Counted from the stretch's first letter, positions 25,310-44,895 are shown. The stretch: DNA of 64,000 nucleotides from an uncultured Spirochaetota bacterium (GCA_964583615.1 CAZOWM010000010.1:11480-75479), one strand, 5' to 3'. The notes: a model not told the origin generated them from the letters alone. Made by a program: numbers and translations.

Positions 25310-26398
25310 CTACATACCGAACTTCCGCCTTCGCCACTGGTCAAAAATGACAACTGCAACGATGACGATCCCCATGACCACGCGCTGCCAGAAAGCAGAG
25401 ACATTGAGCAGGTTCAGCCCGTTTCCCAGAACTCCCATGATAATTGCGCCGATCAGGCTTCCGATAATGCTCCCTTCACCGCCAAAGAGGTTTGTGCCGC
25501 CGATAACCACAGCTGCGATGCATTTTAGTTCCACACCGGTTGCCATAAGAGCGTTTGCGGAATTCATACGGCCTGTCAGCACGATGCCCGCAACAGCCCC
25601 CATCATCCCCATGATGGTATAGGTGGCGATTTTTATCCGGTCTACCTTGAGTCCGGAAACTCTCGACGCTTCCTTGTTGCCGCCGATGGCAAGTATCGAT
25701 CTTCCCAGTACCGTCTGACTGAGGATAAGCCAACCGATGCCGACCATAATGAACGCGATCAGGGGGCCTGTGGGAATACCAGCAACCTCCTTTCCCCCCA
25801 TCCAGATGATGGGTTCCGGAAGATACCCTTTCAGCTCGGTTGCGGTCAAGTGCGAGGGGATGGGGAGCCCTCCGGTTACCAGAAGAGCCACTCCCCGCGC
25901 AGCTTCCATCATTCCGAGTGTTGCAACGAAGTCGGGGATTCGTCCTTTTGCGATTACAAGGCCGTTGATGGTACCGGCGATTGTACCGACGAGAAAGCCG
26001 GCAAACACCGCAAGCCACACATTGATGGGACCGAAGGTTGTTCCAATGAACGTAATTTCCTGTGTGGCAAGAACTGCCATGATTGATGCAGACACTGCCA
26101 TTATCGCGCCTACAGAGAGGTCGATTCCCGCGCCGATGATCACCATGGTCTGGCCTACTGCAAGTATGATGAGATAGGCGTTCTGCTGCCCAATGTTCTT
26201 CAGGTTGTCGATGGATGCAAAGTGCGGTGAAGCGATAGAGAAGTACACTACAAGCAGAAGGAGAGCGATTATCGGACCGCCCTGTAGAAGCGTTGCCCAG
26301 CTGAACTTACTCAGGCCCATACTTCGTATCATACGCGTCAAAACAGATACGCTTTCACCGGGGTTTCTTTCTTCCTTCGAAGATTGGCGCATTCTCAT
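25310..26398 (-). CDS. Sugar ABC transporter permease (RbsC family)
   Basis: GIDLSVG, FVATLG, T.LGRSI.AIGGN.EASRVSG, ELKCIAAVVIGGT.L.GGEG. Confidence 0.92.
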   Translation of the reverse strand: MRMRQSSKEERNPGESVSVLTRMIRSMGLSKFSWATLLQGGPIIALLLLVVYFSIASPHFASIDNLKNIGQQNAYLIILAVGQTMVIIGAGIDLSVGAIMAVSASIMAVLATQEITFIGTTFGPINVWLAVFAGFLVGTIAGTINGLVIAKGRIPDFVATLGMMEAARGVALLVTGGLPIPSHLTATELKGYLPEPIIWMGGKEVAGIPTGPLIAFIMVGIGWLILSQTVLGRSILAIGGNKEASRVSGLKVDRIKIATYTIMGMMGAVAGIVLTGRMNSANALMATGVELKCIAAVVIGGTNLFGGEGSIIGSLIGAIIMGVLGNGLNLLNVSAFWQRVVMGIVIVAVVIFDQWRRRKFGM

Positions 26399-27918: not shown

Positions 27919-28724
27919 AACGCGGTGTAACCGCCGTCAATGCTCAGAGCCGTACCGATCGTGTACTTCGCTTCATCGGATGCGAGAAATAAAATACCCG
28001 CCGCGATCTCTTCAGGTTTTCCCATTCGCTTCAAAGGCCTGTCCTCGGAAAGCTCCCTCAGTGTGGTCTCGGGGTCTTCAGAGCTGTTGATGACCTTTTC
28101 CACGAGAGGAGTAAATACTCTTCCCGGACACACACAGTTGACCCTGATATTCTTATCGGCAAAATCCACAGCCGAGCTCTTTGTGAATGCAACGACTCCG
28201 CTTTTTGAAACATTGTACGCCACCTGATTACGTATTGCAACGAGCCCTGCTTCGGAAGCGATGTTCACGATACTCCCCCCTCCGGTTTTCACCATCTCCG
28301 GAATACAGTACTTCGTGCAGAGAAACACGCCAACGAGATTCACGCTCAGAATTCTGTCCCACTCCTGCTCGCTCGTGTCAACAGCGGTTCCGGTTGTAAA
28401 AATTCCCGCAACATTCACGAGAATGTCGATTCGAGAATACGCGGAAACCGCAAAACGCACCATGTTCTGTACATCCGCGGTCTTTGATACGTCGGTGCGG
28501 ACAAAGGCTGCGTCCCCGCCTTTGCTCCGGATACGCTCCACGGTGTCATTTCCCGCTTTAGTATCGATATCGGCAGCCACCACATGCGCACCCTCGTCTG
28601 CAAAAAGCAGCGCTGTTGTTTTTCCAATTCCTGATCCCGATCCGGTGATAATAGCGCTCTTGTGCGCAAGTTTCATCTTTTCTCCCCGTTCGCACGGATG
28701 GGGATGGATGCTCGAAGCCGCCAT
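27915..28724 (-). CDS. Short-chain dehydrogenase/reductase
   Basis: TGSGSGIG, NVAG, SIVNIAS, YNVSK catalytic motif, RVNCVCPG. Confidence 0.92.
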   Translation of the reverse strand: MAASSIHPHPCERGEKMKLAHKSAIITGSGSGIGKTTALLFADEGAHVVAADIDTKAGNDTVERIRSKGGDAAFVRTDVSKTADVQNMVRFAVSAYSRIDILVNVAGIFTTGTAVDTSEQEWDRILSVNLVGVFLCTKYCIPEMVKTGGGSIVNIASEAGLVAIRNQVAYNVSKSGVVAFTKSSAVDFADKNIRVNCVCPGRVFTPLVEKVINSSEDPETTLRELSEDRPLKRMGKPEEIAAGILFLASDEAKYTIGTALSIDGGYTAL

Positions 28725-28743
28725 CCACCCCCACCGTTTTTCA

Positions 28744-29940
28744 CTACTTCCGCGGTGAACCGCCTTCCTTGATTATATCCCACTCTATGGGCTCCAAAGC
28801 GGGATTCGGATAGAAGAGCCGAGCGTTGTCCTTGTACATCGTTCTTGGCCGTATGTCGAATATATAGGGAACTTCACCGCCGAGCGCGAGTGTCACTGCA
28901 AACTCCGTTCCGTACCACCCCCATTCCGGAAAACCATGGTGAGTTTCGGCTATCATCTTTCCTTCAGCGACACGGTCAGCGGACTCAGGCGTTACATCAT
29001 TGGTGAAAATCGCAACATACTTGTCACCGATATCGCCCATGCCCGCGATCTCGAGCCGGCCTTTCCCTTCGCATGCGAGCATCGCTCCAAGACCCATTTC
29101 ATTGGAGGCAGCCCATATCGCATCGAGTGTGCCTGGAGGGTTGGCGGTGAGAAAATCTTCCGCAGCCTGTATTCCCTTCTCCCGGTTCCAGTCCGCGGGA
29201 AGAGTGCCGACGATTTCTATCCCTGGAAAGGGGTCGACAACCTCGTGAAACCCGTTGAGCCTGGCCGTAGAGAAAAACCCTCCAGCAATTCCCTCGATAA
29301 TTGCCACCCGTGCTTTGATATTGGAATTCGCGGGGTAAACGTCCTCATACAGGTCCTTCCACCAGGCAAGATCGAGATAGGTATCGCCGTCTACGTCCAC
29401 ATTGGGTCCCTTGCCCAGCACACCCGGCCCTCCGAAGTAATCGAGAAGTGCATATGCGGAGATTCTTCCCGCATCCGTGTTGTCAAAACCGATGTAGGAT
29501 GCAACATCAACACCGGGAATGGGCTCAAGAAGATTGACAATGATCACAGGAATTCCCTGTTCGTTTGCCTTTTTGATCGTGGGTTTTATCACCTCGACTT
29601 CGATTGGAGAGATCGCGATGACGTCGACTTTTCTCTGAACATAATCTTCGATGATTGCGACTTGGTCGGCGAATGCGACATGCGTTGCGGGTGACTGAGA
29701 AATGACCTCCACTTCGATCCCGTTCTCCCGCGCGTCTTCGGCGCTTTTCTCGAAGTAATCTGTTGCTGTTTTAAATACACCGGTGATGTCGGGCGGGGTC
29801 CAGCCGATTGTAATTTTCTCAGGCGCTTTCCTTCTTGATGAAGCAGCCAACCGCGCATCGTGGTGCTGTGCAACGAAGATACACACGAGCGCAAGCACAA
29901 CTAGCGTTGAAATTGCGAGCAGTTTCATTTTTTTTGCCAT
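28744..29940 (-). CDS. Sugar ABC substrate-binding protein (RbsB/Peripla_BP_4 family)
   Basis: Signal/anchor, DQVAIIED, KANEQGIPV, SYIGFDN, ARLNGF, ADWNRE.G, ASNEMGLGA. Confidence 0.88.
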   Translation of the reverse strand: MAKKMKLLAISTLVVLALVCIFVAQHHDARLAASSRRKAPEKITIGWTPPDITGVFKTATDYFEKSAEDARENGIEVEVISQSPATHVAFADQVAIIEDYVQRKVDVIAISPIEVEVIKPTIKKANEQGIPVIIVNLLEPIPGVDVASYIGFDNTDAGRISAYALLDYFGGPGVLGKGPNVDVDGDTYLDLAWWKDLYEDVYPANSNIKARVAIIEGIAGGFFSTARLNGFHEVVDPFPGIEIVGTLPADWNREKGIQAAEDFLTANPPGTLDAIWAASNEMGLGAMLACEGKGRLEIAGMGDIGDKYVAIFTNDVTPESADRVAEGKMIAETHHGFPEWGWYGTEFAVTLALGGEVPYIFDIRPRTMYKDNARLFYPNPALEPIEWDIIKEGGSPRK

Positions 29941-31191: not shown

Positions 31192-32076
31192 ATGAATACG
31201 AAACAGCTGAAACTCTTCATGCTCATTGCAGACATCAAGAGCTTTTCAAAAACAGCGGAGCTCGAGGCGCTCACCCAGCCTGCGGTTACTCAGCAGATTA
31301 TCAGGCTCGAAAAGGAAATGGGCTCAGTTCTTTTCCGCAGAAGGCACAAGAAGATCGAGCTCACCAAAAAAGGAAAACTCTTCTACAAGTTCGCAAAAAA
31401 TATGCTGACGATGGTTGACAACCTTGAAAAGGAGATGAGAATCATCGATCAGCGTGATGAAAGCTATCTTCGCATCGGTTCCAGTCATATCCCCACCTCG
31501 GAATTTCTCTATCAGAAGATCGCTGACTTCAAGAAAGCCCATCCCCATGTCTACATCATCTATGAGCTCAGCGACACCGAGAGCATCTCATACATGGTCG
31601 AAAACGAGTTGCTCGACCTCGGTTTTGTGGGAGCAATCACAAACAACAACCTTCAGTACAGAAGTTTTTCAGGGGACGAGCTGAAACTCGTTGCGAATAA
31701 GGATTTTGACGTGCCCTCCGAGATATCGCTTTCCGCACTGAAGGATATTCCGCTGATCATTAATCAGAAGCAGTCGGGTGTTAGAAAATATCTCGAAAAA
31801 AAACTAGAAGATTATAACATACTGTTTTCCGATTTAAACATCATCTCAGAAATCGGTCTTCCCGACGCGCTCGCGAGTGTTGTGCTCCATGGAGCAGGGT
31901 GCGCCTTCATCCCGTCTATTGTACTCGAACGGGAGATAAATAAGAGGGAGCTGAAGATTATCACGGTGAAGAACTTCAAAGCGTACAGAAGCTACTATTC
32001 GATCACGAAAAAAGGAGCTCTTCTTTCGAAACTTGCAGAGGAGTTCCTCAATTCCTTTATTACTGCGTCTGAATAA
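31192..32076 (+). CDS. LysR-family transcriptional regulator (CysL-like)
   Basis: SFSKTAE...LTQPAVTQQIIRLEKEMG HTH, LRIGSS, LDLGFVG, GAGCAFIP. Confidence 0.92.
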   Translation: MNTKQLKLFMLIADIKSFSKTAELEALTQPAVTQQIIRLEKEMGSVLFRRRHKKIELTKKGKLFYKFAKNMLTMVDNLEKEMRIIDQRDESYLRIGSSHIPTSEFLYQKIADFKKAHPHVYIIYELSDTESISYMVENELLDLGFVGAITNNNLQYRSFSGDELKLVANKDFDVPSEISLSALKDIPLIINQKQSGVRKYLEKKLEDYNILFSDLNIISEIGLPDALASVVLHGAGCAFIPSIVLEREINKRELKIITVKNFKAYRSYYSITKKGALLSKLAEEFLNSFITASE

Positions 32077-32093
32077 AATACTACAAAAAATTA

Positions 32094-32122
32094 TTGAAAT
32101 GGGTGTTTTCCTGCGCTATATT
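32094..32122 (+). promoter_or_regulatory. Sigma-70 promoter for the TPR-barrel-exbBD-tonB operon
   Basis: TTGAAA, 17-nt spacer, TATATT in an AT-rich intergenic region. Confidence 0.55.
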
Positions 32123-32206: not shown

Positions 32207-35131
32207 ATGAAAAAAGAAAAATTCACGAACATTGTAAAGATTGTGTTCCTGTACATGATTTTCGCGATCACCCCCCTTTCCCTTTCGGCGATGACAAGGG
32301 AAATGGAGCTGTTTTCAGACGCAGAGAGCAGGTATTACGGAAAGAGTTATGTGATCGCCCTCGAAATGTACGACGAGTTCCTGAAGAAATTTCCGCTCTC
32401 GGACCTCGTCCCCGATGTACAGTACAGAAAGGCGGTCTGTCTGTACAGGCTGGGGGATCTCGAGCGGGCGATGTTGCTGTTCAGCACAGTCGAAAAGCGG
32501 TACAGGGCAACGAAGTACATTACGTACGTTCCGTTCTGGAAAGGGCTCATCTATTTTCATCAGGCGGATTATGGAAATGCGGAAGAGCTTTTGGAAGCTT
32601 TCGTGCAGGAAACGAAAGACAAGGACCTGAAACTTCAGGCGATGCTCCATCTGGCAATCAGCGAGCTCTCTCAGGACAAGTTTGCTGATGCATATGAAAC
32701 GATGAAACGTCTGGAAGACGCAAAGCGTCCGGATACACTCTCACCCTATGAAGCGCTCGTTCTCAGCCACATACTTTTGAAAAAAAACGCCTACAGCGAG
32801 CTCATCGCATTTCAGGACGGCATCGATTATACGGAGTTTTCCGAGGCCTGGAACGAGAGAATGCGCCTCTACAAAGGGGAAGCGCTGTGGAACCTCCAAG
32901 AGGAGAAACGTGCGGAGGAAGTGTACCGCTCGCTTACGGACGCCCATCCCGACGTATCTGCCAGTGCATTTCGGCGGCTTTATTTGATTGCACAGCAGAA
33001 TAATGATATTGAGCGTATGGAAGAAATCATATTACAGGCGGAAGAAAAGTTCAGCGGTTCCCCGGAGACGCTGGTGGACCTCTGGCTCGGCATCGGAATC
33101 GAGAGTTTCAACCGCGGGGAGGCGGATCTTGCGCGCTACTTTTTGAACAAGATCTGGATAATGAGAGAACAGCAGGAAGTTTCTGAAGCCGTTCCCGTGT
33201 ACCTTGCAGAAATCCATCTCCTCGAAGGCGAGGTGGAGTCAGCGAAGCGTGTTCTTGAAGAGTACATCGAAATATACAAACGCGAGCCGGCTGTCGTTTT
33301 GCTTCGGCTGGGAAACATTTATATGTACGGAGGGGAGTTTGAAAGAGCTTCGGAGATGTTTTCCCGCGTCGACGCGCTGTATCCGGGCACCGTTCATGCG
33401 CAAAAGGCGCGGTATCTGCTGGCTTATGCGCATTATAGAAAGGGGGAATACACGGAGTCACTTGCACTTTGCCTCGAATTGACGGAGAGAAAAAACATCG
33501 AGACTCATCTGAAACCCGGGATACTGCGGCTCACCGCACTGAATTACAGGAGACTGAGAAAAATCGAGGATGCGGCGCGGACCCTGGAAGTGTATCTTGT
33601 ATTCTACCCCCTGGACCTCTCTGCACAGGTTGATTTGACGAAACTGCTTTTTTCTTCCGGGAAATACAAGGATGCGATCAGCCACGCGGACGGAGTCCTG
33701 CAAAGCCGGCCCTCCATGCAGCAGACGGAAATAAGCTCATATCTTCTCCTCAAATACATTCAGGGGCTGTCGCAGATTCGCCTGAAGTCCTACGCCGAAG
33801 CGCATACAGCATTCCAGGAAATCACGGCCGGCAGGGTACAGGATGCGGGGCTCGAAGAGATTTTTCCCTATATTGAGTACTACCGCGGATGGATACTTTA
33901 CAGATTGAACGACGTAGAGAGTGCCAACGATGTTTTCAAACGGTTTGTGCGTTCCTTCAGAGACCACGAGCTTTTCGCGCAGGCTCTTTTCATGTCTGCG
34001 TGGTGCGCGTACAGCCTCGGAAACTACGAAGAGTCCAACAAACTCTTCGCCCGTCTCGCGGATGATGAATCAGGTCCGTACGGGGAAAAGGCGCGTTTTC
34101 TGCGGGCAAAGAGCCTGGAGAGCCTGAAAATGAGTTCGGAATCGGAAATACTCTTTAAAAACCTCTACAAAGAGAGTCCGGATTCGCCTTTTGCAGATGA
34201 CGCGCTCTATGAGCATGCAAATCTGCTCGGAGAGAAGGGCGCTATTGAAGAAGCTGCGGAAAAATACCTCGAGCTCCACAGCAGGTATGCGGCGAGTCCG
34301 CTCGCGGATGAAGCGCTCTACAGGAGGGGCGAGCTCTATTTCAACAACGGGAAATTCGACCGGGCCAGAAGCTCCTTTCGAGAATACCGCGTGCACTATC
34401 CAAAGGGCACGCTCATTGACGCCGCCCTCTACTGGGAGGGCCTTTCCGCCTACAACGACGGAGACAGCGCGGAGGCTTTACGACTGTGGGAGACCCTCAT
34501 CGAATCCCATACGGCAAGTCCGTTCAGGCCTGACGCGCTCATGAAAATCACAGACGCAAGAATCGAAAACGGTGATTATCGGAATGCACTCGAAAGCGTC
34601 AACGCGCTCCTGCAGGAGTATCCGGAGTACTCTGCACGGGTGAATGCGAACCTCACGGCAGAGCAGGTGCGGTATCTCATCCACGGTATGTCGCCCGTAG
34701 AGGCGGAGCTGACTGCCCGAATAAGTACACAGGGAGGGGTGCAAACCCGGAAAGGCAGAGAAGCAATGGTTGAGCTCTCGCGGTTCTACATATTCGAGGA
34801 TGAAGACAAGATCGAACGCGCGTTTCAGATGCTCAGTCAGGTAGTGGAATACAAGCAAGACCCTGTCACAGCGGCCCAAGCGCAGTTTCTTTTGGGTGAA
34901 TATTATGAGAAGAAAGGTGAGTACACAGAAGCCGGAAAGGAGTTTTTCAAAGCGTCGCTCAAGGATACGGAAGGCGCGGATTTTCGGGCTTATTCCATTT
35001 ACAGAGCAGCGCTGTCGATGAAACAGGTGGGAAAGTCGAGAGAAATACAGGAACTCGTGAGCAGGCTTGAAAAAAATTATCCGCAGTCCGAGTGGACACA
35101 GAAAGGAAAAAAGCTCCTGGAGGAAGAGTAA
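32207..35131 (+). CDS. Large exported tetratricopeptide-repeat protein (about 970 aa, CpoB/YfiO-like repeats)
   Basis: Signal peptide, many TPR units (A.Y..G..Y, YP.S..A..AL), ends YPQSEW..K. Start set at ATG 32207. Confidence 0.88.
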   Translation: MKKEKFTNIVKIVFLYMIFAITPLSLSAMTREMELFSDAESRYYGKSYVIALEMYDEFLKKFPLSDLVPDVQYRKAVCLYRLGDLERAMLLFSTVEKRYRATKYITYVPFWKGLIYFHQADYGNAEELLEAFVQETKDKDLKLQAMLHLAISELSQDKFADAYETMKRLEDAKRPDTLSPYEALVLSHILLKKNAYSELIAFQDGIDYTEFSEAWNERMRLYKGEALWNLQEEKRAEEVYRSLTDAHPDVSASAFRRLYLIAQQNNDIERMEEIILQAEEKFSGSPETLVDLWLGIGIESFNRGEADLARYFLNKIWIMREQQEVSEAVPVYLAEIHLLEGEVESAKRVLEEYIEIYKREPAVVLLRLGNIYMYGGEFERASEMFSRVDALYPGTVHAQKARYLLAYAHYRKGEYTESLALCLELTERKNIETHLKPGILRLTALNYRRLRKIEDAARTLEVYLVFYPLDLSAQVDLTKLLFSSGKYKDAISHADGVLQSRPSMQQTEISSYLLLKYIQGLSQIRLKSYAEAHTAFQEITAGRVQDAGLEEIFPYIEYYRGWILYRLNDVESANDVFKRFVRSFRDHELFAQALFMSAWCAYSLGNYEESNKLFARLADDESGPYGEKARFLRAKSLESLKMSSESEILFKNLYKESPDSPFADDALYEHANLLGEKGAIEEAAEKYLELHSRYAASPLADEALYRRGELYFNNGKFDRARSSFREYRVHYPKGTLIDAALYWEGLSAYNDGDSAEALRLWETLIESHTASPFRPDALMKITDARIENGDYRNALESVNALLQEYPEYSARVNANLTAEQVRYLIHGMSPVEAELTARISTQGGVQTRKGREAMVELSRFYIFEDEDKIERAFQMLSQVVEYKQDPVTAAQAQFLLGEYYEKKGEYTEAGKEFFKASLKDTEGADFRAYSIYRAALSMKQVGKSREIQELVSRLEKNYPQSEWTQKGKKLLEEE

Positions 35132-36744
35132 TGGTCAGGTGGATTTTCACATCATGCGTGGTAGTATTGTTTTTTACAGCAGGAACGGGTGCCGGAATCT
35201 CTCAGGAGCTCGAACCGGAAGAGCCTGAGATCATTCTTCCCTCCGTTGTGCTCGAAATCGAGGATCTGAGCGTTGAGCGTATGACGGAGGCTCTGCCAGA
35301 GGAGGAGGAGCTTTTGCCTTCGGAACCACCGCTTCCGCTCCCAGAAGCAGAGGAGCTCGAGGTGCGAGAGCCACAGCTCGACCTCACACTCCCTCCTACA
35401 GGGCCTTCAGTATTTGAGATAAAGGAGGGGAAGTATCTCTCTGCAGAGGCGATATTGGGGACAGGAACGGCAAACGAATTCTACAGTAAAATATCGCTCT
35501 TTTTTCTTGGGGAAAGACCGGAAGGAAAGATCCTCTTCCAGCACGAGACGATCGACGGATTTTCATCGGAATCACCGGGCACGGGCTACAACACACGCGA
35601 AGACACGCTGGATGGATACATAGACTTTGATCTGAAAAACGGCGAGTTCAGCTTCGAAGGCTCGTTTTCTGAGCTCGAGAGAGGGCTTCAGGAGAATGGG
35701 GTGTATTTTTCAAAGATCAACCGGTTCGTCGACCTCGGTGTAAGCTCCGCGCACCGGTTCAACGACTGGTTTTCCTTGAAGGGGTCGATGTCCGGATCAG
35801 CGGCAAACCAGGTGCTCACCGACGGACCATCCCCTGCTGAGCGAATTGTCGAATACCACATTCTGCCCTCAGTCGCGGCTGAGTTCAGTTTCCAGAGGTG
35901 GTACTTCGGAATTGAGCCGCGCGCGAGCTACAGGAGCATTCCGGACATATCGGATCTTTCAGCCGGGAGGATGCAGGTCAGGGGGTATTTCGGGGCGGAC
36001 GTCACGGATTACCTTCATCTCGACGGCGGTGCCGGGTGGTTCTGGAGCGAGGAGACTGCGAACCTGTTTCCCTTTGATCTCACACTCACCGCGGCGCTCG
36101 GAGACTTTCTGTCGTTCAGGATCGGCGGTGGGTACAGAATCATCGAGTATCAGCTCAGAGATGTGTTCAGAGAGTATCAGCTCTCAGATGTTCCTGCTGC
36201 TCTCGAGGACAACCACGGATGGTACGGTGATGTCCGCACAAACTGGATTCCCTCTCAGGGGTGGATCGTTGATGCGGGAGCGCTCTACTTTCACAACAGC
36301 AGTATGCCGACTTTCGGGAGAACGGTCGATGCCGCAACCGGGCTTTTCCCCTTCACACAGGGTGAGGCGCAGCAGCTCAGTGTTGACGCAGGCATACGGT
36401 GGATCATTTCCGAGCTTTTCTCGGCACGAGCAGGGATGGAGATAGAGATTGGAGAACGGCCTGAGTTCTCCCCGGAGAGGAGGCTGACGATTGACATGGA
36501 TCTCGTGCAGCCGCAGGGGAAGTACGGGGCAGGGGCTTCGCTCGATCTCATAACCGGAGTCAACGACTCGAATCAGCTGCCGGTCCTTGACCTGAACGGA
36601 TTTTTCCGGCTCAATCAGTACGTCCGGTTCATGATTGAAGCAGACGACGTGCTCTCCGTATTTCTCGAAGATTCCAGGTACAGCTGGGAGCCGTATGTAG
36701 ACCCCGGTTTTCTATTGAAAGCAAAGGTACACATAAATTTTTAA
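35131..36744 (+). CDS. Outer-membrane beta-barrel protein, TonB-receptor-like but short
   Basis: Signal peptide, acidic Pro-rich N-terminus, alternating beta-strand pattern, terminal AKVHINF signal. TAATG coupling to the TPR gene. Confidence 0.75.
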   Translation: MVRWIFTSCVVVLFFTAGTGAGISQELEPEEPEIILPSVVLEIEDLSVERMTEALPEEEELLPSEPPLPLPEAEELEVREPQLDLTLPPTGPSVFEIKEGKYLSAEAILGTGTANEFYSKISLFFLGERPEGKILFQHETIDGFSSESPGTGYNTREDTLDGYIDFDLKNGEFSFEGSFSELERGLQENGVYFSKINRFVDLGVSSAHRFNDWFSLKGSMSGSAANQVLTDGPSPAERIVEYHILPSVAAEFSFQRWYFGIEPRASYRSIPDISDLSAGRMQVRGYFGADVTDYLHLDGGAGWFWSEETANLFPFDLTLTAALGDFLSFRIGGGYRIIEYQLRDVFREYQLSDVPAALEDNHGWYGDVRTNWIPSQGWIVDAGALYFHNSSMPTFGRTVDAATGLFPFTQGEAQQLSVDAGIRWIISELFSARAGMEIEIGERPEFSPERRLTIDMDLVQPQGKYGAGASLDLITGVNDSNQLPVLDLNGFFRLNQYVRFMIEADDVLSVFLEDSRYSWEPYVDPGFLLKAKVHINF

Positions 36745-36754
36745 GGAGAGGAAC

Positions 36755-37453
36755 ATGCTTGATATAATGCAGAGGGGCGGGATAATCATGTGGATTATTC
36801 TTTTTCTGTCGATCGTTGCCGCGATCATCATCATCGAGAGACTTCTTTATTTCAGGAAGATTCGGATCGATGAGGAAAAGATGATCAACCGGCTGAAGTC
36901 GACGCTTCGCAAGCAGCATTTTGACGAGGCGATTTCGATATGTGAGAACAACCCTTCCCCGATCACGAATCTAATGAGGGTCGGTATCGAAAACCGCCAC
37001 CATGCCCCGGATACCATAAAGGAAACGATCCTCGATGCGGCGAATCTCGAGATACCGCAGATGGAAAAGCACCTCCCCGCACTCGGGACAGTCACACACA
37101 TTGCACCTCTGCTCGGCCTTCTGGGAACGGTGACCGGAAATATCTCGGCGTTCGGGGTACTGGGAAAGCTCGGGTCTGTCGGAGACCCCGCACTTCTCGC
37201 CAAGGGTATATCGGAGGCGCTTCTCACAACTGCAGCGGGACTCATCGTGGCAATTCCCGCAATAATATTTTACAACTATCTCGTCAACAAGGTCAATCAC
37301 ATGATTATCCGTCTGGAAAACCGGGTGAACGAGCTCGTGCTCCTGCTGGAAACACACAGAGAGGAGATAATAAAACCGGGGGAGGATATTTCTTCTCCGT
37401 CTCAACCCCCGGATGGGGGCATGCGCCCACTCGACGGAGGGGGACTGATATGA
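36755..37453 (+). CDS. exbB: MotA/TolQ/ExbB proton channel
   Basis: APLLGLLGTVTG.I..F, LAKGISEALLTTAAGLIVAIPA. Confidence 0.92.
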   Translation: MLDIMQRGGIIMWIILFLSIVAAIIIIERLLYFRKIRIDEEKMINRLKSTLRKQHFDEAISICENNPSPITNLMRVGIENRHHAPDTIKETILDAANLEIPQMEKHLPALGTVTHIAPLLGLLGTVTGNISAFGVLGKLGSVGDPALLAKGISEALLTTAAGLIVAIPAIIFYNYLVNKVNHMIIRLENRVNELVLLLETHREEIIKPGEDISSPSQPPDGGMRPLDGGGLI

Positions 37454-37866
37454 AATTTCGGAGAAGGCTCACCACACGGACAAATGTGGAACTTGTGCCG
37501 TTGATCGACGTGGTATTTCAGCTCGTGGTGTTCTTCATGGTTTCCACCACGTTTATCCTCACCCCGGGGATAAACATCGTGCTTCCGGCCTCGCAGTCGT
37601 CAGAGCCGGTTGCGATGACCAGAATGGTGGTCTCCATTGTTTCCAGCGACGAGCTGTATCTCAACAAGGACCGCTACACACTCGAAGGGTTGAGCAATAA
37701 ACTCGCAGAGCTCAGCGAGGAGGAGAAAAACGCAATAAAGACGGTAATCATCGAAGGCGACAGCGCCGTCTCCTACAATCTCATGGTGGAAGTGCTGGAT
37801 GTTCTCCGGTTGAGCGGATTCAAGGGAGTAAACCTGAAAACACGCGAAGAAAAGGAAACAAGCTAA
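37450..37866 (+). CDS. exbD: ExbD/TolR
   Basis: VELVPLIDVVFQLVVFFMV (TM Asp), IEGDSAV.Y..MV.VLD. Confidence 0.92.
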   Translation: MKFRRRLTTRTNVELVPLIDVVFQLVVFFMVSTTFILTPGINIVLPASQSSEPVAMTRMVVSIVSSDELYLNKDRYTLEGLSNKLAELSEEEKNAIKTVIIEGDSAVSYNLMVEVLDVLRLSGFKGVNLKTREEKETS

Positions 37867-37868
37867 AA

Positions 37869-38792
37869 ATGTACACGGCACACCAGAACAGAAAGCGCAT
37901 GTTCATCAGCTTAATCATCGCGTTCCTGTTTCACGCAGCGGTTTTTACCGGGGGGCAGTTTATTCTTCCTGAGGATATCGGAAAGATCGAGGAGTACCAG
38001 GGCCCTCTGCTCGTGACCATAGAACGGGAGCGTCCCCCCCAGCCGGTCGAGGTGGTGAAGAAAAAGCCTGCGGTGAAAAAGGAGGACGTGCCGAACAGAC
38101 CTGAAGTGAAAAAAGAAAGCCCCCCTCTGCGCAGGGAAAGCAAAAAGAAACAAACAAGCTCAGTGCCTTCTGTTCAGGAAAGGGGAATCGTCCCAGACAC
38201 CTCAGGTCCGGCGGTTCATGACCAGAATGTCGAGCTCATAGAGATGGAGAAATTCTGGGAGTCGATTCCCGCGCCCCTGGATGAAGAAGAGGGGCTTCCG
38301 CCCATCACGACCCGGGAATACAGGGAAGAAAAGAAAGACGAGGCTGTTCCCTTTCAGTCGAAGTCTGAGATCGCGCGCGAGAGCCTCACATTCGACGTAG
38401 GGAAACTCGATGCGGCACTCGAGAATGAAGCCGTGTCTGTTTCGAATGAGGGAACCGCGCGGGGTCCGGCATCGGACACCGGTAAGATCGAAGCTGCACA
38501 AATGCCGCTCATCGTGTGGGACGACACCTCACAGGAAAGAGCGTTCACGTACAGAGGCCCTTTTCCGGAAATTCCTCTCTGGGTAAATAATGAAGGGCTC
38601 GAGCTGAGAGCAGCGATTTCATTTGCGGTTACCGCGGAGGGACACACAACGGGAGTGAAGGTAAGGGTGTCTTCAGGTTATTCGGATGTTGATTCAAAGA
38701 TCCTCGATGCGGTTCGGAAAATGAAATTCAATCCACTCCCCGGAAGCGGCCTGGTAACCGGGACGATCACCTACATCATCAGTCCGAGATGA
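37869..38792 (+). CDS. tonB: TonB-family energy transducer
   Basis: N-terminal S..IAFLFHA anchor, Pro/Lys/Glu-rich linker, C-terminal SSGYSDVD..ILDAVRKMKF.P. Confidence 0.85.
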   Translation: MYTAHQNRKRMFISLIIAFLFHAAVFTGGQFILPEDIGKIEEYQGPLLVTIERERPPQPVEVVKKKPAVKKEDVPNRPEVKKESPPLRRESKKKQTSSVPSVQERGIVPDTSGPAVHDQNVELIEMEKFWESIPAPLDEEEGLPPITTREYREEKKDEAVPFQSKSEIARESLTFDVGKLDAALENEAVSVSNEGTARGPASDTGKIEAAQMPLIVWDDTSQERAFTYRGPFPEIPLWVNNEGLELRAAISFAVTAEGHTTGVKVRVSSGYSDVDSKILDAVRKMKFNPLPGSGLVTGTITYIISPR

Positions 38793-38814
38793 CAGCCTCT
38801 GCTGGAAATGTGCT

Positions 38815-39510
38815 TCAATTTTCGTACGTCCTGGTCGGATCGTACATTCCTTCACGGGCCTCGCCGTTTATGCTGGGGATCGTGAAAACCTGTCCGGGCA
38901 AGATGAGGTGAGGATTGTGGGGATTTTTGAGTTTCTCCCTGTTTGCCTCATAGATGATTTTCCACTTCCAGGGGTCGTTGTAGATGAATTCGTACTCCGC
39001 TATTCGCCAGAAGCAGTCGCGCCGTCTCGGGATGAGGCGGACCTTGTAATATTTTGGAAGCGGCTCTGCCGGAACGAGATCTTTGAGTACATTGAGAACA
39101 CGGTTTGAGTAATCGATGCTTCTTTCATACTGCTCCGCACCGTAGGATTGTTTCGCGATTGCGAAATCAGCCGCTGCCTGGCTGAACTCCCCGGGATGAT
39201 CATTCTCAATCCCCTCTGCACGTGCATGATCGAGCCTGCCAGAGGCACGCTGCATGAGCGTGTTTGCCTTATGTCTCTGCACGAGCATGGTCGCGTAGGT
39301 GTCGGCTTTTTTTATATGTTCTCTCGCCTTTTCAGCATACTCATAGGCCGAATCGTACTTTCCTTCTTCGTAGGCTTTCTCCGCCTTTCTGTTCAACTCT
39401 TTTGCCTTCCGATAGTCGGGATTATCGAAAAGCGACTGCCCTACTGCTGCGATTGCGCAGAGGACCGTACACATAATAACCGTGATAATAATCAGTGTTT
39501 TCCTTTCCAT
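38815..39510 (-). CDS. LysM peptidoglycan-binding protein (spirochaete type)
   Basis: Signal peptide, helical repeats, RDCFWRIA...YNDPWKW..IYEAN...NPHLILPGQ...IP. Confidence 0.88.
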   Translation of the reverse strand: MERKTLIIITVIMCTVLCAIAAVGQSLFDNPDYRKAKELNRKAEKAYEEGKYDSAYEYAEKAREHIKKADTYATMLVQRHKANTLMQRASGRLDHARAEGIENDHPGEFSQAAADFAIAKQSYGAEQYERSIDYSNRVLNVLKDLVPAEPLPKYYKVRLIPRRRDCFWRIAEYEFIYNDPWKWKIIYEANREKLKNPHNPHLILPGQVFTIPSINGEAREGMYDPTRTYEN

Positions 39511-39576
39511 GTGAAAGTCCTTCGTCTTATCTATGATATTCGCCCCGATTGACAGGGCGCAGAAGACATCGGGCTG

Positions 39577-40200
39577 CTACAGTCCCGCTGCTTCGACCTT
39601 TTGTTCCACCTGCTGAAGCTCGCTTTTCGATCTCTCGATCGATTGTTCCGCCCTCTGTTTTTTCACAAGTGTCTGCTTTCTGACTTCCTCGAAAAGCGAT
39701 TTTGCTTTCTCGAGAAGAGAAACCGCTTTCTCATGGTTTCCCGCCTCCTGTTCTCTCAAACCCTGTTCGTAGGTTTCGAGCGCCTCGGCATACTCTTGCT
39801 TCATTGCAACCGATGCCTTGTTTTCATCCGCTTCCTTTTTTATTGCGGCTACTTCATTTCCGAGCCCCTTTGCGTACGCGGGATACCCTTTTTTGATTAC
39901 CGCATCGAAAAACCGTGTCGCCTCTTCGAATGCCTTCTTTGATTTGCTGTTATTCTTGGTGTAGTACTGCTCTCCCTCTGCGTACTCTTTTTCCCCGTTT
40001 TTGTATTCTTCCGGCGCATACTGGTCGAGGTTGTGATTCCGAATTTTCTCCCTCAGCAGTTTCGCCTCCGCGTATTCTTCCGAGGGAGGGGTGGACGCTT
40101 TTTTCCCATCCTTCAGATCCTTTTTCTCAGGGGAAGAGGCACAGGATATCATTAATCCGCATAGTATGAGTGCAATACACAGAAATGAGTATTTTTTCAT
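39577..40200 (-). CDS. Helical lipoprotein (DUF4398-like)
   Basis: LMISC lipobox, YAP.EY..GEKEY helical repeats; upstream of and co-oriented with the LysM gene. Confidence 0.8.
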   Translation of the reverse strand: MKKYSFLCIALILCGLMISCASSPEKKDLKDGKKASTPPSEEYAEAKLLREKIRNHNLDQYAPEEYKNGEKEYAEGEQYYTKNNSKSKKAFEEATRFFDAVIKKGYPAYAKGLGNEVAAIKKEADENKASVAMKQEYAEALETYEQGLREQEAGNHEKAVSLLEKAKSLFEEVRKQTLVKKQRAEQSIERSKSELQQVEQKVEAAGL

Positions 40201-40397
40201 TTATCATTCTCCCTATTTGTTATATCGTCAGACAGTAGAGCAATTCTTTAGCCTTCTGACGAAAATCAGGGCTATTTAAATTTTAGTGTATTTGCAATCT
40301 CTTTTCAAATAAATCTTGTTAATTCTCATATGCATGAAAATTACTTGTTTGTGCACATGTCTGTGCTGTATAGTTGAAGGGTATTGGATTACATGTT

Positions 40398-42491
40398 ATG
40401 GAATACGGGCAAAAAAAGAACGGCGCATTGAGAAGGCCCGAGGGGGAATGGATCCTTGCAAACAGGCGTGGAGGATATGCCCTCGGGACCGCGGATCTCA
40501 TCAACAGGCGAAAGTACCACGGACTTCTCGTGGCGTATGTCGAGGGTGCGGGCAGGGTCCATCTCGTATCCACTGTTGAGGAGAGGATCGGAACAGAAAG
40601 TGAGCACGCCTTTCTTGACGCGCACAGTTACCACGATCTCGTGTATCCGCACGGACATCTGCACCTCATTAGTGCCGCACTCAGGCCCTATCCGGGATTT
40701 GTGTATTCCTTCCGGCTCATGGGGCGTGAAGTGCGTGTGGGAAAGGAAATCCTCATGGCGGAAACCTCCAACCTCACCCTCGTGCGGTACACCAATATGG
40801 GCACTGCGTCGCTTGATTTCGCGTTCCGTTACCAGTTCAGCATGCGAGACCACCATCATGTCAACAATCCCGGTACGTTTGACGCGCTCTCGGTGTTCTT
40901 TGAAGTCGAGAACCGCGGAAAATTTCGTGAAGGAAAGGTGCTGAGGCCTGACAACGGCGCGGAGGCCTTCATCTACACCTCCGCCGGTGAGCTCGGTCGT
41001 GAAATGCTTGTCTTCCGGAACATCGTGTACAGTGTTGAGCGAATGCGGGGGTACGATTTTCGGGAGGATCTTGTGTCGCCCTTTATACACCGGGGGACGC
41101 TCGAGAACGGCCGGTCGCTGATTACGGTGTTCTGCGACCACGAGAGAAACGACCTGAAGAATCTTGACCCGCGCGTTCTGTATGATGAAATAAAAAGCCG
41201 CTATTCCGCATACACCGTGCCTGAGGGGCATCCGGCGCAAATGCCATGGGATGGCCCGGGGCACACGGGGGTGGTAAAAAAGAGACGCGCGCGATCCCGT
41301 ATGAGTATCGAGCAGTACCGGTGTCTTCTCGAGCTGATGCTCGATGATTTCCGGACGGAAAACGACATCATCGCAGGTTTTCCCTGGTTTTCGCCCTGGG
41401 GGAGGGACACGATGATCGCGCTCGAAGCGTACATGAAACAGGAAGGCAATACCGGGTACACATTCAAGGTACTAAGAACGTACGGAGAAAGGATGATGAG
41501 CGGAATCGTTCCCAATGTACTCGGTGAGGCAGGCAGGGGTGGGAACTACGACACCATCGACGCTTCGCTCTGGTTTGTGCTGAGGGTTTTTGAGCTTTTC
41601 GCAAGCCTCGATACTGAAGAAAAGGAGATACTGCTCGGATTCTGCGAACAGGTCGTGCTCAATTACCGCTTCAACGGCGACCTGCTATTTTACTTCGACC
41701 CCGCCGACTCGCTCCTCTCGATTCGGGACGGGATCGGTTCCGCACTGACGTGGATGGATGCAAAAATCGGCGGTATTCCCGTCACTCCCAGGTACGGAAA
41801 ACCGGTCGAAATAAACGGACTCTGGTACAATGTACTCGAGGCGGTAAAACGCATGGCCGGTGAAATGAACAGAGAAGAGCTTTTATTCGGATCATACAAA
41901 ATGGAGATGGATGAGCTGAAAAGCTGTGCAGACACGGCAGGGCGGATGATGAAGCGATTTTATCACTGCGGTATCTGGTGCGACAGGATCGAAAAGGGAA
42001 CGCCGGTGTGCGAAATCAGGCCCAATTTCGTGATTGCCTGCTCCCTGCCCTTTGACTTCGCCGACTCGGCAGGGCTGTCGTCTGCAGTAGCTACCGCACG
42101 AACACATCTTCTTACAGGGTTCGGCCTCAGGTCGCTTTCGCCGGAAGACGTGAACTACAGAGGCGTGTATGAAGGAGATCAGGACAAGCGTGACAGGGCG
42201 TATCACCAGGGAACCGCGTGGACGTGGCTTTTGCTTCCCTATGCGAAACTCGTTCGCAAAACCGTAGGGCGGAAGGCACGTCTGAAAATTGAGCTGGAAG
42301 AGATCGCTCGCGGAATACGGGAGCGTGTCATGCAGGGCGCTCTCGCGTCGATCGCAGAGGTATGGGACGGTGACACACAGGATGTTCCGAAAGGCGCTCC
42401 CGCCCAGGCGTGGTCGGTCGCAGCTCTCTTCTGTATCGAAGAAATGATAGAGCGGCTGGACATAAAACAAGAGAAGGACGGCACATATTAG
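40398..42491 (+). CDS. Glycogen debranching enzyme, amylo-alpha-1,6-glucosidase (archaeal/Bacteroidota type)
   Basis: W.L.N..GGYA, RKYHGLL, AGFPWF..WGRDT, DASLWF, TWMDAK, GKPVEIN.LWYN, YHQGTAW, AQAWSVA. Confidence 0.92.
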   Translation: MEYGQKKNGALRRPEGEWILANRRGGYALGTADLINRRKYHGLLVAYVEGAGRVHLVSTVEERIGTESEHAFLDAHSYHDLVYPHGHLHLISAALRPYPGFVYSFRLMGREVRVGKEILMAETSNLTLVRYTNMGTASLDFAFRYQFSMRDHHHVNNPGTFDALSVFFEVENRGKFREGKVLRPDNGAEAFIYTSAGELGREMLVFRNIVYSVERMRGYDFREDLVSPFIHRGTLENGRSLITVFCDHERNDLKNLDPRVLYDEIKSRYSAYTVPEGHPAQMPWDGPGHTGVVKKRRARSRMSIEQYRCLLELMLDDFRTENDIIAGFPWFSPWGRDTMIALEAYMKQEGNTGYTFKVLRTYGERMMSGIVPNVLGEAGRGGNYDTIDASLWFVLRVFELFASLDTEEKEILLGFCEQVVLNYRFNGDLLFYFDPADSLLSIRDGIGSALTWMDAKIGGIPVTPRYGKPVEINGLWYNVLEAVKRMAGEMNREELLFGSYKMEMDELKSCADTAGRMMKRFYHCGIWCDRIEKGTPVCEIRPNFVIACSLPFDFADSAGLSSAVATARTHLLTGFGLRSLSPEDVNYRGVYEGDQDKRDRAYHQGTAWTWLLLPYAKLVRKTVGRKARLKIELEEIARGIRERVMQGALASIAEVWDGDTQDVPKGAPAQAWSVAALFCIEEMIERLDIKQEKDGTY

Positions 42492-42561
42492 TCGTCCAAG
42501 AGCAGTTCCGGATGATGTTCTATCGATCTTTCAAGGAGCGTATTTTCAAATTAGAGTTCTA

Positions 42562-43737
42562 ATGCTGACATGGGAGTTTCCCCCCTATGGGCGGGGGGGG
42601 CTTGGAAAGGCATGCTACGGCCTGGTGAGCGGGCTCCTCGAGAAAGGTGTTCAGGTACAGCTCCTCATCCCCTGTGAGGGAACAGCGGGAGTGTATGTGC
42701 TGAAAGAGCCCGGGCATGCGAACACGCTTTCGGAGCACTTTGAGCCTTTTGTTCATTCTGAGAGTATGTATCAAAAAACATGGGAAGGGCATTGCAGGGG
42801 GGAGTACACAAAAGATTACTACGCGGCCGGCGCGGATCTGCTTCTCAGTGGCTCATTTAGGTTTTCCATGCCGGCGGCATGCATCTCTATCGGGGAATTT
42901 GATCTCATTCACGCCCACGACTGGGCCACATTTCCTGCGGCTCTGCAGCTCAGAAGCTTGACCGGAAAACCTCTTGTCTGTCACATCCACTCAACGGAGT
43001 GCGACAGATCCCCGGGCAAGGGGGAGGAGCGTATACACGCGGTGGAGCGGGCGGGTCTTTCCGTGTGCGAGAGAGCAATTGCAGTCTCAAACTACACGGC
43101 ATCTGTGATCCGGGACCGCTACGGTATCGATTTTTCCAAGATCCGTGTGGTGTACAATGCGTGCGGAAAAGATAATACGGCGAAACGGACGGCGCGAATA
43201 TTCAAAGACCCGGTCGTGATCTTTTCGGGACGGGTCACACAACAGAAGGGGCCCGAAACCTTTCTCAAAGTTGCAGAGCGTGTCGCGGCACGGTTGCCTG
43301 CCATACGGTTTCTGATGGCAGGTTCAGGCGACCTCTTCTGCAGAATCGTTCACCAATCAGCGTCAATGGGGTTTGGGACACGGTTTCTACCTCTGGGGCA
43401 CCTTCAAACAAAAGAACTGCAGCGTGTCCTTTCTGCAGCGGACATACTCCTTGCACCCTCTGTGGCCGAGCCGTTCGGGCTTTCAGTGCTCGAGGCAATG
43501 AGCTTCGGGGTGGTACCTGTTGTCTCGGCCCGCGCCGGTGTGTCGGAGATTGTCGAACACGTGATAAAGGTGGACCCCGGCGACATTGATGGCATGGTGA
43601 GCGCAGTGGTCGGCCTGGCCGAGGATCATGGAAAACGGCGGTCCATGGCCCGTGCCGGGGCGCAGGAAGCGAGCGCGCTTACATGGAATACTGCAGCGGA
43701 GGCGGTCGTGGATATCTACGGAGAACTTGGATGCTGA
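42562..43737 (+). CDS. GT4 glycosyltransferase (glycogen-synthase-like)
   Basis: WEFPP...GGLG.ACYGL, HAHDW, HSTE.DR, GR.T.QKGP, EPFGLSVLE. True start may be ATT 42550. Confidence 0.88.
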   Translation: MLTWEFPPYGRGGLGKACYGLVSGLLEKGVQVQLLIPCEGTAGVYVLKEPGHANTLSEHFEPFVHSESMYQKTWEGHCRGEYTKDYYAAGADLLLSGSFRFSMPAACISIGEFDLIHAHDWATFPAALQLRSLTGKPLVCHIHSTECDRSPGKGEERIHAVERAGLSVCERAIAVSNYTASVIRDRYGIDFSKIRVVYNACGKDNTAKRTARIFKDPVVIFSGRVTQQKGPETFLKVAERVAARLPAIRFLMAGSGDLFCRIVHQSASMGFGTRFLPLGHLQTKELQRVLSAADILLAPSVAEPFGLSVLEAMSFGVVPVVSARAGVSEIVEHVIKVDPGDIDGMVSAVVGLAEDHGKRRSMARAGAQEASALTWNTAAEAVVDIYGELGC

Positions 43738-44885
43738 AAGTAATGCTCAATGTGTTTTTCCACGAGCCGTACCCTTACAGACCGGTGAATGTGTTCGACC
43801 CCTTTACTTTTCTTTCACTTTTTGACGAAACGGAGATGCGGTCCCGGGTTGAGACTGAAGCCGCATACAGATACAGGCCTGTCTGCAGAAAACTCGTTCA
43901 CCTGTGCAGGGACCACGCGAAGGAGTTCAAAGTTGTTGTCTCGGTATCGGGGTGTGCGCTCGAGAGCTTCAAGCGTTACTGCCCGGACATTCTGCAGCTG
44001 CTTGAAATAATTTCTGATTCCTGTTGTGCGGAATTCACAGGTGAGACCTATTACCACTCCGCTTCTTCCCTTTTCGACATCGCTGAATTCAGAGAGCAGG
44101 TCTTCATGCACGCAGAGCTGATCCGCCGGGTGTTCGGAGCCGAACCTTCTGTTTTCCGAAATGCCCTGTTCTCCTACGATGAGGAGTCAAGGGATGCTCT
44201 GCAGTGCTTTCGGCAGTTCAGGGCCATTTTCACGGAGAGCGGAAAAAAGAGTTTTGTTCCCGCCCCGTTTGCACTGTACAGGGCGGGAGAAAATGAAACC
44301 ATTATATTTCTCAATTCATGGAACTTTTCGTATTATATTAATCCTTGCGGATATGGACAAACTCCCGGGGATGATGTATTTTCCCTGCTCCGTCGTTTCT
44401 TCTCACCGGAAGACCGGGAAGAAGATCTGTATTTCTATCTGTTTCTGGAAAGCGCGTTCACCCCAGGCACGGTGTGGGAGCGCGTGGTGGAGAACGCATC
44501 AATGCATTTGAGTAAGTGCAGGGACGTCTCTTTTGTGCTGCCCTCTGAAATCCTGAGAGAGGCCGAGGGCAGGAAGGCTGATCTTCCCGTGTTCGAAACA
44601 GGAAAGCCTGTCGGGAATACCCGGGAAATCTCTTCGCTTCTGAATGATCTTCAGCGAAGCGCCTCCGAGACGCTCTATTCCATTATCCGGAAAATACGGG
44701 AAGACGGGGCGTGCGACATTCTTTCCACAGTTCGGAGGCTCACTTCAGTGGAACATCTTCTTTCCATGGCTCCGCGTTCCGGCCCCTGCCGAACGGCAGG
44801 CAAAAGCACCTTCGGTCAGTGTTCGCCTGAAGAGGCGTATTCCATGTTTTTAACAACTCTCGCGCGTATCGAGGAAACGCTCTGA
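43731..44885 (+). CDS. GH57 alpha-amylase homologue, apparently catalytically degenerate
   Basis: AYRYRP, SVSG..LE, EFTGETYYHS, FRN, NDLQR match GH57 architecture; catalytic motifs are altered. Confidence 0.75.
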   Translation: MLKVMLNVFFHEPYPYRPVNVFDPFTFLSLFDETEMRSRVETEAAYRYRPVCRKLVHLCRDHAKEFKVVVSVSGCALESFKRYCPDILQLLEIISDSCCAEFTGETYYHSASSLFDIAEFREQVFMHAELIRRVFGAEPSVFRNALFSYDEESRDALQCFRQFRAIFTESGKKSFVPAPFALYRAGENETIIFLNSWNFSYYINPCGYGQTPGDDVFSLLRRFFSPEDREEDLYFYLFLESAFTPGTVWERVVENASMHLSKCRDVSFVLPSEILREAEGRKADLPVFETGKPVGNTREISSLLNDLQRSASETLYSIIRKIREDGACDILSTVRRLTSVEHLLSMAPRSGPCRTAGKSTFGQCSPEEAYSMFLTTLARIEETL

Positions 44886-44895
44886 GGAGTATCTT

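Follow-up and report, generated by a model that had tools for sequence, protein, structure and literature searches.

A conserved five-gene operon of Spirochaetota joins an ExbB-ExbD-TonB-like motor to a giant TPR protein and a plugless 22-strand outer-membrane barrel

A stretch of 64,000 nucleotides (GCA_964583615.1, CAZOWM010000010.1:11480-75479; hereafter the window, from whose first letter positions are counted) comes from an uncultured spirochaete of salt-marsh and marine sediment and carries five adjacent genes on the + strand, at 32207-38792, which form one conserved operon. They encode, in this order, a secreted tetratricopeptide repeat (TPR) protein, an outer-membrane beta-barrel, the proton-motor subunits ExbB and ExbD, and a TonB-like transducer. 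We take the operon to encode a proton-driven trans-envelope machine of the Ton/Tol kind and not a new category; its barrel belongs to a previously undescribed family of plugless 22-strand outer-membrane partners without a Pfam or NCBIfam model. We consider it about an even chance (a probability of roughly 0.5) that the five proteins constitute a dedicated Ton/Tol-type force-transduction machine for energised outer-membrane coupling, perhaps combined with gating of the wide barrel.

The five genes are separated by near-zero intergenic DNA. The stop codon of the TPR gene and the start codon of the barrel gene share one base (TAATG), and the TPR stop overlaps the barrel start in the gene calls of all six related public contigs examined. 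A gap of 10 nt separates the barrel gene from the ExbB gene, the ExbB and ExbD genes overlap in ATGA, and 2 nt lie between the ExbD gene and the TonB-like gene, whose stop codon is 22 nt from that of a convergent gene on the - strand (Table 1). The original prediction, which a model had made from the sequence of the window, described five tightly coupled genes, and all of its coordinates and junctions proved correct when the genes were called again. They are not chance open reading frames (ORFs), since each has many full-length homologues elsewhere in the same order, and it is from the gene overlaps and the conserved synteny that we conclude that they form an operon. The original prediction placed all five behind a single promoter, for which there is one weak candidate. 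The promoter scan as a whole did not exceed its shuffles (13 sites against 7.1 ± 3.5), so the sigma-70-like sequence listed in Table 1 is a match to the consensus and not functional evidence; the terminator scan did not rise above its shuffles either.

A word-indexed protein search with the barrel returned 24 homologues, and a profile made from a diverse barrel alignment (A2) recovered the same 24 proteins from the word-indexed database as the single sequence. Exhaustive profile searching gave 486 clusters at 50% identity, including 216 that reached E ≤ 1e-30; among the 150 matches listed most were full-length (about 540 residues) and about 20 were shorter fragments. A genome scan covered one genome per species of GTDB. 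Because A2 was too diverse to serve as a seed, the scan was seeded on another alignment, A1, and thus on the N-terminal motif of the barrel described below, so that divergent members may have been missed. It yielded 34 loci, all in metagenome-assembled genomes (MAGs), which carry the label Spirochaetota, Spirochaetales or Spirochaetaceae except for one, named simply 'uncultured bacterium'. The order TPR, barrel, ExbB, ExbD, TonB-like is kept in all 34 as far as the contig extends, with one locus lacking ExbB and ExbD, and gene calls on six public contigs, one of them from the most distant relative listed, show the same order. In an all-against-all comparison of the ORFs in these neighbourhoods, the five operon genes were the only real families common to all loci; the other widely shared clusters were antisense shadow ORFs within the operon, and the flanking genes vary from lineage to lineage. 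The original prediction had named a lack of conservation as a ground for abandoning it, and had proposed a neighbourhood comparison across Spirochaetota and Bacteroidota. The five-gene order is strongly conserved in the former, both in the species loci and in distant metagenomic members, and the motif-seeded scan found no relatives in the latter, every match with an organism label belonging to Spirochaetota. The module has so far been seen in Spirochaetota only. No prior description of the operon or of the barrel family was found in the searchable literature, whose coverage is incomplete, and the negative amounts to no more than absence of evidence. Spirochaetes do not figure in a 2025 survey of force transducers of the periplasm (PMC12204202).

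Two variations on this arrangement were observed. The locus without ExbB and ExbD (L023, 5048-16149, in MAG MFD04408.bin.1.18, contig CAWGAA010000002.1) has the TonB-like gene directly after the barrel gene; its TPR gene is broken by what looks like a frameshift, and an ORF of 1866 residues then follows. Either its motor is encoded elsewhere or the gap is an artefact of long-read assembly. In nine of the more distant loci (L002 3744-5069, L040 1655-2962, and L023, L031, L032, L033, L035, L038 and L039) a sixth gene is present, which lies directly upstream of the TPR gene in the two for which gene calls are available (L002 and L040). Its product is secreted, measures about 440 residues and contains the invariant stretches GGFNCSGFxKWxxDG and RDPxFGLDWxRNLA together with several His residues, a pattern that recalls Cys/His hydrolases. 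An assignment as an NlpC/P60-type cysteine peptidase, considered because of the invariant NCSGF and His, was not supported by any sequence match in Pfam or the PDB. The window has no counterpart of this gene.

The barrel protein matched no model in Pfam or NCBIfam, and a profile search against PDB sequences returned nothing meaningful. Its AlphaFold2 (AF2) model (predicted local distance difference test score, pLDDT, of 78 and above 85 across most of the barrel; predicted template modelling score, pTM, of 0.72) shows 22 strands, and Foldseek placed it closest to the barrels of the TonB-dependent transporters FepA, PfeA, BtuB and OprC (E 2e-16 to 1e-14, template modelling score TMq about 0.6) at about 10% identity. 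There is no plug domain in the model, in which residues 15-100 are predicted to be disordered, and none of 44 diverse members of the family matched Plug (PF07715) or TonB_dep_Rec (PF00593), even at E values up to 1. A canonical plugged TonB receptor, the identity that the original prediction had put forward as its own counter-case, is contradicted by these two results. Two predicted loops, L2 (residues 138-160) and L3 (residues 181-190), are strongly conserved in the family.

The disordered tail of the barrel carries, directly after the signal peptide, a motif that we call the box (Table 1). It has the near-invariant consensus EPxEPxI(V/I)LPxVxLEIEDLSVE, and among 22 homologues the columns P29, P32, I34, L36, P37, L41, E42, I43, E44, D45, L46, S47 and E49 are invariant or nearly so. 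In the 44-member alignment, with a mean identity of 30%, the box is among the most conserved segments of the barrel; it is present in every related locus and, in the window and all fetched loci, it is confined to the barrel gene. In the most distant barrels it is degenerate, yet its proline-punctuated, acidic and strand-like character is kept. We propose the box as a putative docking motif for the C-terminal domain of the TonB-like protein or for the TPR protein. Among the periplasmic elements of the barrel only the box, a linear motif with alternating hydrophobic residues, is strongly conserved, and the TonB-like domain would be its likeliest partner. Box residues 39-49 (VVLEIEDLSVE) also resemble a conserved segment near strand 21, residues 500-512 (FMIEADDVLSVFL; IxLIVEVEDLLYP in relatives), a likeness that could be due to chance or could hint at pairing of the tail with the barrel itself.

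The TPR protein carries a signal peptide, whose cleavage motif P..L.A is conserved, and lacks a lipobox. Against Pfam it matched TPR_16 (3.5e-46), TPR_6 (1e-44) and YfiO (3.4e-20), and against NCBIfam it matched tol_pal_ybgF (TIGR02795, CpoB/YbgF; 218 bits, in eight separate stretches and over the TPR unit only) and BamD (145 bits). The AF2 model (pLDDT 91) consists of about 54 helices arranged entirely as TPR-like hairpins. Foldseek aligned it with generic TPR solenoids only, both eukaryotic and bacterial, one of them a periplasmic scaffold of the Campylobacter flagellar motor, and we treated these partners as non-specific. The 27 full-length orthologues are labelled 'TolA-binding protein' by IMG; no match to the coiled-coil trimerisation domain TolA_bind_tri (PF16331) was obtained in Pfam.

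Both motor subunits score better with Tol than with Ton models. The ExbB protein, which is highly conserved across loci, scored best with TolQ in NCBIfam (111.9 bits, equivalog cut-off 221) as against 67.6-73.2 bits with the ExbB models, and the ExbD protein gave 69.3 bits with TolR (equivalog cut-off 127.3) as against at most 54.2 bits with the ExbD models, all of these scores being below the cut-offs. The transmembrane Asp of ExbD, in PLIDVVFQL, is conserved across 33 sequences. The TonB-like protein passed the thresholds of TonB_C (PF03544; 26.0 bits, cut-off 24.6) and TIGR01352 (44.5 bits, cut-off 27.1), and its C-terminal domain aligned to the structures of TonB C-terminal domains 8rd6, 1xx3 and 2gsk_B. 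A cytoplasmic N-terminus of about 10 residues precedes one transmembrane helix with His22, a residue kept in 60-90% of sequences, and the helix is joined to the C-terminal domain by a poorly conserved linker of about 195 residues rich in Pro, Lys and Glu. In the most distant members (L035, L036, L039 and L040) the linker is a low-complexity stretch of about 250-350 residues in which Ser, Ala, Gly and Pro abound, and the pattern of the C-terminal domain is kept in distant proteins wherever the contig extends to it (that of L035 is cut off).

In Ton systems the C-terminal domain of TonB adds a strand to the N-terminal TonB box of a transporter and pulls on the plug, and in Tol-Pal the same strand addition lets TolA bind the disordered N-terminus of TolB, the TolA box. 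The operon shares with Ton systems the ExbB and ExbD domains including the transmembrane Asp, a TonB-family protein in which a single transmembrane helix and a proline-rich linker precede TonB_C, and a 22-strand outer-membrane barrel of transporter fold whose mature N-terminus bears a short conserved motif in the position expected of a TonB box. It differs from them in that the barrel has neither a plug nor the corresponding signatures and has short predicted external loops, the box is longer, acidic and proline-punctuated, the giant TPR protein is an obligatory and translationally coupled partner, and the motor is genetically dedicated to one barrel. With Tol-Pal it has in common motor subunits that score best against TolQ and TolR, TPR repeats of the CpoB/BamD type and the placing of all parts in one operon, and the tail of the barrel may be gripped as TolA grips that of TolB. 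In contrast to Tol-Pal, the transducer has a C-terminal domain of the TonB type, the partner in the outer membrane is an integral barrel, and neither TolB nor Pal turned up in the operon, among the window ORFs scanned or in the gene families common to the related loci; the window scan, which left out the first 11.4 kb, covered 30 further ORFs from 11.4 to 64 kb and likewise detected no Pal/OmpA, Plug or TonB_dep_Rec domain. CpoB, moreover, is a protein of about 260 residues with an N-terminal trimeric coiled coil and C-terminal TPRs, whereas the TPR protein of the operon has 974 residues, is composed of TPRs throughout and has no coiled-coil trimerisation domain; it is not a lipoprotein. The view in the original prediction that the locus lacks TolB and Pal and is neither a canonical Ton nor a canonical Tol-Pal system is thus upheld. 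The long periplasmic TPR bridge that it envisaged is hypothetical, and of the roles that it suggested, outer-membrane assembly, lipid homeostasis and export, none is favoured in particular by the present results.

The SusC/SusD systems of Bacteroidota also encode a transporter-fold barrel beside a TPR-containing partner. SusD, however, is a surface lipoprotein of about 550 residues with Pfam families of its own, none of which was matched here, SusC is plugged, the gene order is reversed, and a lipobox is missing from the TPR protein of the operon. The OmpM/SlpA tethers of Terrabacteria resemble the operon barrel in being large barrels whose N-terminus extends into the periplasm and connects the outer membrane with inner layers, and OmpM is reported to be tether and channel at once (PMC10628300). 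Their extensions, in contrast, consist of coiled coils and SLH domains and attach to the cell wall passively, and there is no sequence relationship; the tail of the operon barrel is a short linear motif whose partner would be an energised TonB-like protein. SusCD, BamA/BamD and exopolysaccharide-secretin identities were each rejected because a defining feature failed.

In the mechanism that we propose, the C-terminal domain of the TonB-like protein would capture the box of the barrel by beta-strand augmentation, and the ExbB/ExbD proton motor would then pull on the barrel through this transducer. The TPR protein, made in step or in fixed proportion with the barrel, would dock on its periplasmic side as a scaffold or lid, and may guide or track the long linker of the TonB-like protein, by analogy with GltD, the predicted track for GltG in the Agl-Glt machine of Myxococcus (PMC11761067). 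The output that we think likeliest would be an energised mechanical link between the outer membrane on one side and the inner membrane and cell wall on the other, with a role in envelope maintenance or division comparable to that of Tol-Pal. Agl-Glt sets a precedent for a mechanical machine in which a motor and a TonB-like transducer work with a giant TPR protein and with barrels of the outer membrane (PMC11761067, PMC3169522). We lean to envelope coupling because both the motor and the TPR protein lean towards Tol/CpoB, because the module is fixed and one-to-one rather than a motor serving many receptors, because no uptake or degradative genes travel with the operon, and because Spirochaetes are reported to have no Pal, with OmpA as their sole reported outer-membrane tether (bioRxiv 10.1101/2021.05.31.446380). 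A more specific version can be offered only tentatively: the operon may be the Spirochaetota's own coupler of the outer membrane, driven by the proton-motive force (PMF), a counterpart and possible evolutionary cousin of Tol-Pal in which the TonB-like protein pulls the tail of a plugless, transporter-derived barrel and the giant TPR protein closes or holds that barrel in trans.

Several points weigh against envelope coupling. As modelled, the 22-strand transporter-like fold argues for a conduit, which a mere tether would not need, and a barrel of this size that is predicted to be unplugged would form a very wide pore, so that some occluder would have to be present. The similarity of the motor to TolQ and TolR, with scores below the equivalog cut-offs, is only a leaning. 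In the most distant members named above (for example L040, 8696-9703) Tyr or Trp takes the place of the transmembrane His in the TonB-like protein. The apparent restriction to Spirochaetota may also be overstated, the scan having been seeded on a motif.

The chief rival to envelope coupling is TonB-gated transport with a plug acting in trans, because a transporter-fold barrel suggests a conduit and its unplugged width needs closing. The operon would then serve specialised TonB-dependent uptake: the barrel would be a divergent transporter with its channel blocked in trans, whether by its N-terminal tail, by conserved loops that fold inward or by the TPR protein, and the pull of TonB on the box would open it to import a bulky substrate, for example oligosaccharides in what are saccharolytic spirochaetes of sediment. 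We regard this as rather unlikely and have given it about half the weight of the leading explanation. The best structural matches of the barrel are transporters with the same number of strands, the box is located where a TonB box would be, the TonB_C domain passes its cut-offs and the predicted loops L2 and L3 are strongly conserved, all of which speak for a transporter; yet neither a plug nor a family sequence signature was detected in the 44 members, and the uniform one-to-one synteny with the motor and the invariant motifs look more like housekeeping than like the handling of a particular substrate. The window is rich in sugar ATP-binding cassette (ABC) transporters and glycogen genes, but these adjacent sugar genes are not conserved neighbours, nor does the operon have a conserved neighbour that encodes a binding protein, an ABC transporter or a degradative enzyme. 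An ordinary Ton system that happens to stand beside an ordinary TonB-dependent receptor and an unrelated TPR gene would account for the presence of the ExbB, ExbD and TonB domains and for the transporter-like fold of the barrel. It is scarcely credible, given that the barrel model has no plug, that none of the 44 family members matched Plug or TonB_dep_Rec, and that the barrel gene is overlapped by the TPR gene and always found in synteny with it.

Export is a further reading, which we consider improbable. Here the barrel would be a conduit, energised by the PMF, for a polymer or a protein, in the manner of the TPR-plus-barrel exopolysaccharide secretins (AlgK/AlgE, BcsC, PgaA, PelB) or of secretion through Oar. 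The translational coupling of the TPR and barrel genes recalls the fused or adjacent TPR-barrel pairs of synthase-dependent secretion, and the barrel is wide and plugless. The known exopolysaccharide barrels, however, have 16-18 strands, as against 22 here, and need no TonB; they work with a synthase, whereas the operon has no conserved association with a synthase, a glycosyltransferase or a polymer-modifying gene, and the structural matches of its TPR protein are generic. A TonB-dependent transporter that acts in secretion has a precedent (PMC6434023). By its parts list the operon most resembles the Agl-Glt core complex and the Fibrobacter succinogenes cluster FSU_2396-2403. Genes of the core complex and of FSU_2396-2403 are clustered and have an unknown basal function in bacteria that do not glide (PMC3169522, PMC6851124), and the operon could be a reduced relative of Agl-Glt/Nfs or of the Fibrobacter cluster whose task is to move or position surface material, be it for adhesion, for gliding-like transport or for assembling a coat. 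There too, one cluster combines a TolQR-like motor and a TonB-like transducer with large TPR proteins of the periplasm and with outer-membrane beta-barrel/OmpA proteins, to which the motor is linked, GltG (the TonB-like protein) binds the periplasmic TPR protein GltD, of about 1200 residues, through its tail and C-terminal domain (PMC11761067), and the TonB-like protein of the operon weakly matches the model of the AgmX/PglI C-terminal domain (E 0.0066). There are differences in detail: AglR works with two TolR-like subunits as against a single ExbD, transducers of the GltG type have cytoplasmic FHA or GYF domains where the operon protein has about 10 cytoplasmic residues, three TPR proteins (GltD/E/C) stand against one, and the 22-strand transporter-like barrel, which is unlike GltA, GltB or GltH, stands against small porin-like or OmpA proteins. 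Spirochaetota are not among the taxa reported for the core complex (PMC3169522), and we hold this kinship to be very improbable.

Table 1. Features of the operon and its surroundings, in window coordinates
Feature	Position	Strand	Remarks
Sugar ABC transporter	25310-29940	opposite to operon	upstream of operon; not a conserved neighbour
LysR-family regulator	31192-32076	+	PF00126 and PF03466; immediately upstream of TPR gene
Sigma-70-like promoter match, TTGAAA-17-TATATT	32094-32122	+	10 of 12 positions; 85 nt upstream of TPR start codon; weak candidate
Secreted TPR protein, 974 residues, all-TPR solenoid	32207-35131	+	tandem CpoB/BamD-type TPR units
Outer-membrane barrel, 537 residues, 22 strands (residues ~102-536), no plug	35131-36744	+	signal peptide, C-terminal Phe, AF2 and Foldseek
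N-terminal box of barrel, residues 28-49, EPEEPEIILPSVVLEIEDLSVE	35212-35277	+	directly after signal peptide, in disordered tail
ExbB/TolQ-family proton-channel subunit, 232 residues	36755-37453	+	PF01618 (MotA_ExbB) 4.9e-33
ExbD/TolR-family subunit, 138 residues	37450-37866	+	PF02472 4.5e-27
TonB-family transducer, 307 residues	37869-38792	+	TonB_C domain at residues ~233-302
Convergent LysM-like protein, 231 residues, secreted, helical	38815-39510	-	outside conserved unit
Helical Lys/Glu-rich lipoprotein, 207 residues, lipobox LMISC	39577-40200	-	weak family matches; outside conserved unit

The genes around the operon are listed in Table 1. The original prediction had the operon converging on LysM and lipoprotein genes; their location was correct, and neither belongs to the conserved unit, since both are missing from every related locus except L042, a relative with 89% identity, and are thus neighbours in a close relative only. 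The LysM-like protein matched the LipL71 C-terminus (2.4e-12) and PRK11198 LysM (4.7e-07) in NCBIfam, no match to the Pfam LysM model was reported for it, and no paralogy between it and the lipoprotein was detectable. A LysR regulator stands upstream of the TPR gene also in L006, L013, L015, L016 and L042, where it is conserved far better than the barrel (E 1e-130 to 1e-152), and is absent in the other loci; a link between it and the operon is possible but unproven.

Immediately downstream, at 40374-47424, is a glycogen/alpha-glucan cluster which is not a conserved neighbour of the operon and which comprises a debranching enzyme (GDE_N, GDE_C), a GT4/GT5 synthase, a GH57 enzyme and an alpha-glucan phosphorylase with DUF3417. 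Further on, an ORF of 1618 residues (51944-56800, - strand) fuses an alpha-amylase-like region (residues ~474-558) to starch/glycogen-synthase GT5 and GT1 regions (~1076-1570) and is unusually large for alpha-glucan metabolism. A tungsten-type aldehyde:ferredoxin oxidoreductase (AFOR_N, AFOR_C) is encoded at 12108-13937, with a ThiF-family gene further downstream, and is consistent with an anaerobic fermentative lifestyle. Metatranscriptome contigs from salt-marsh and marine sediment matched the window with at least 99% identity at 35131-36527, 37625-37870 and 38827-39798. The regions matched are part of the barrel gene, the ExbD/TonB junction, and parts of the LysM-like and lipoprotein genes. 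These matches weakly suggest that the organism is transcriptionally active in situ, at a very low depth that leaves room for carry-over of DNA.

Proton-driven 5:2 motors (ExbBD, TolQR, AglRQS and others) are regarded as general engines for the energy-poor outer membrane, and further motor-transducer systems have been expected (PMC12204202). The operon adds a motor-transducer system with an undescribed outer-membrane partner, the plugless 22-strand barrel family. If it is a transporter, TonB-driven gating would work without a covalently attached plug. If it is an envelope coupler, it would bear on how spirochaetes, which have periplasmic flagella and no Pal, tether and constrict their outer membrane, and would help to explain the attachment of that membrane and its constriction at division around flagella in a wide periplasm. 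On either reading, the five genes provide a defined target for genetics in a tractable spirochaete that carries them.

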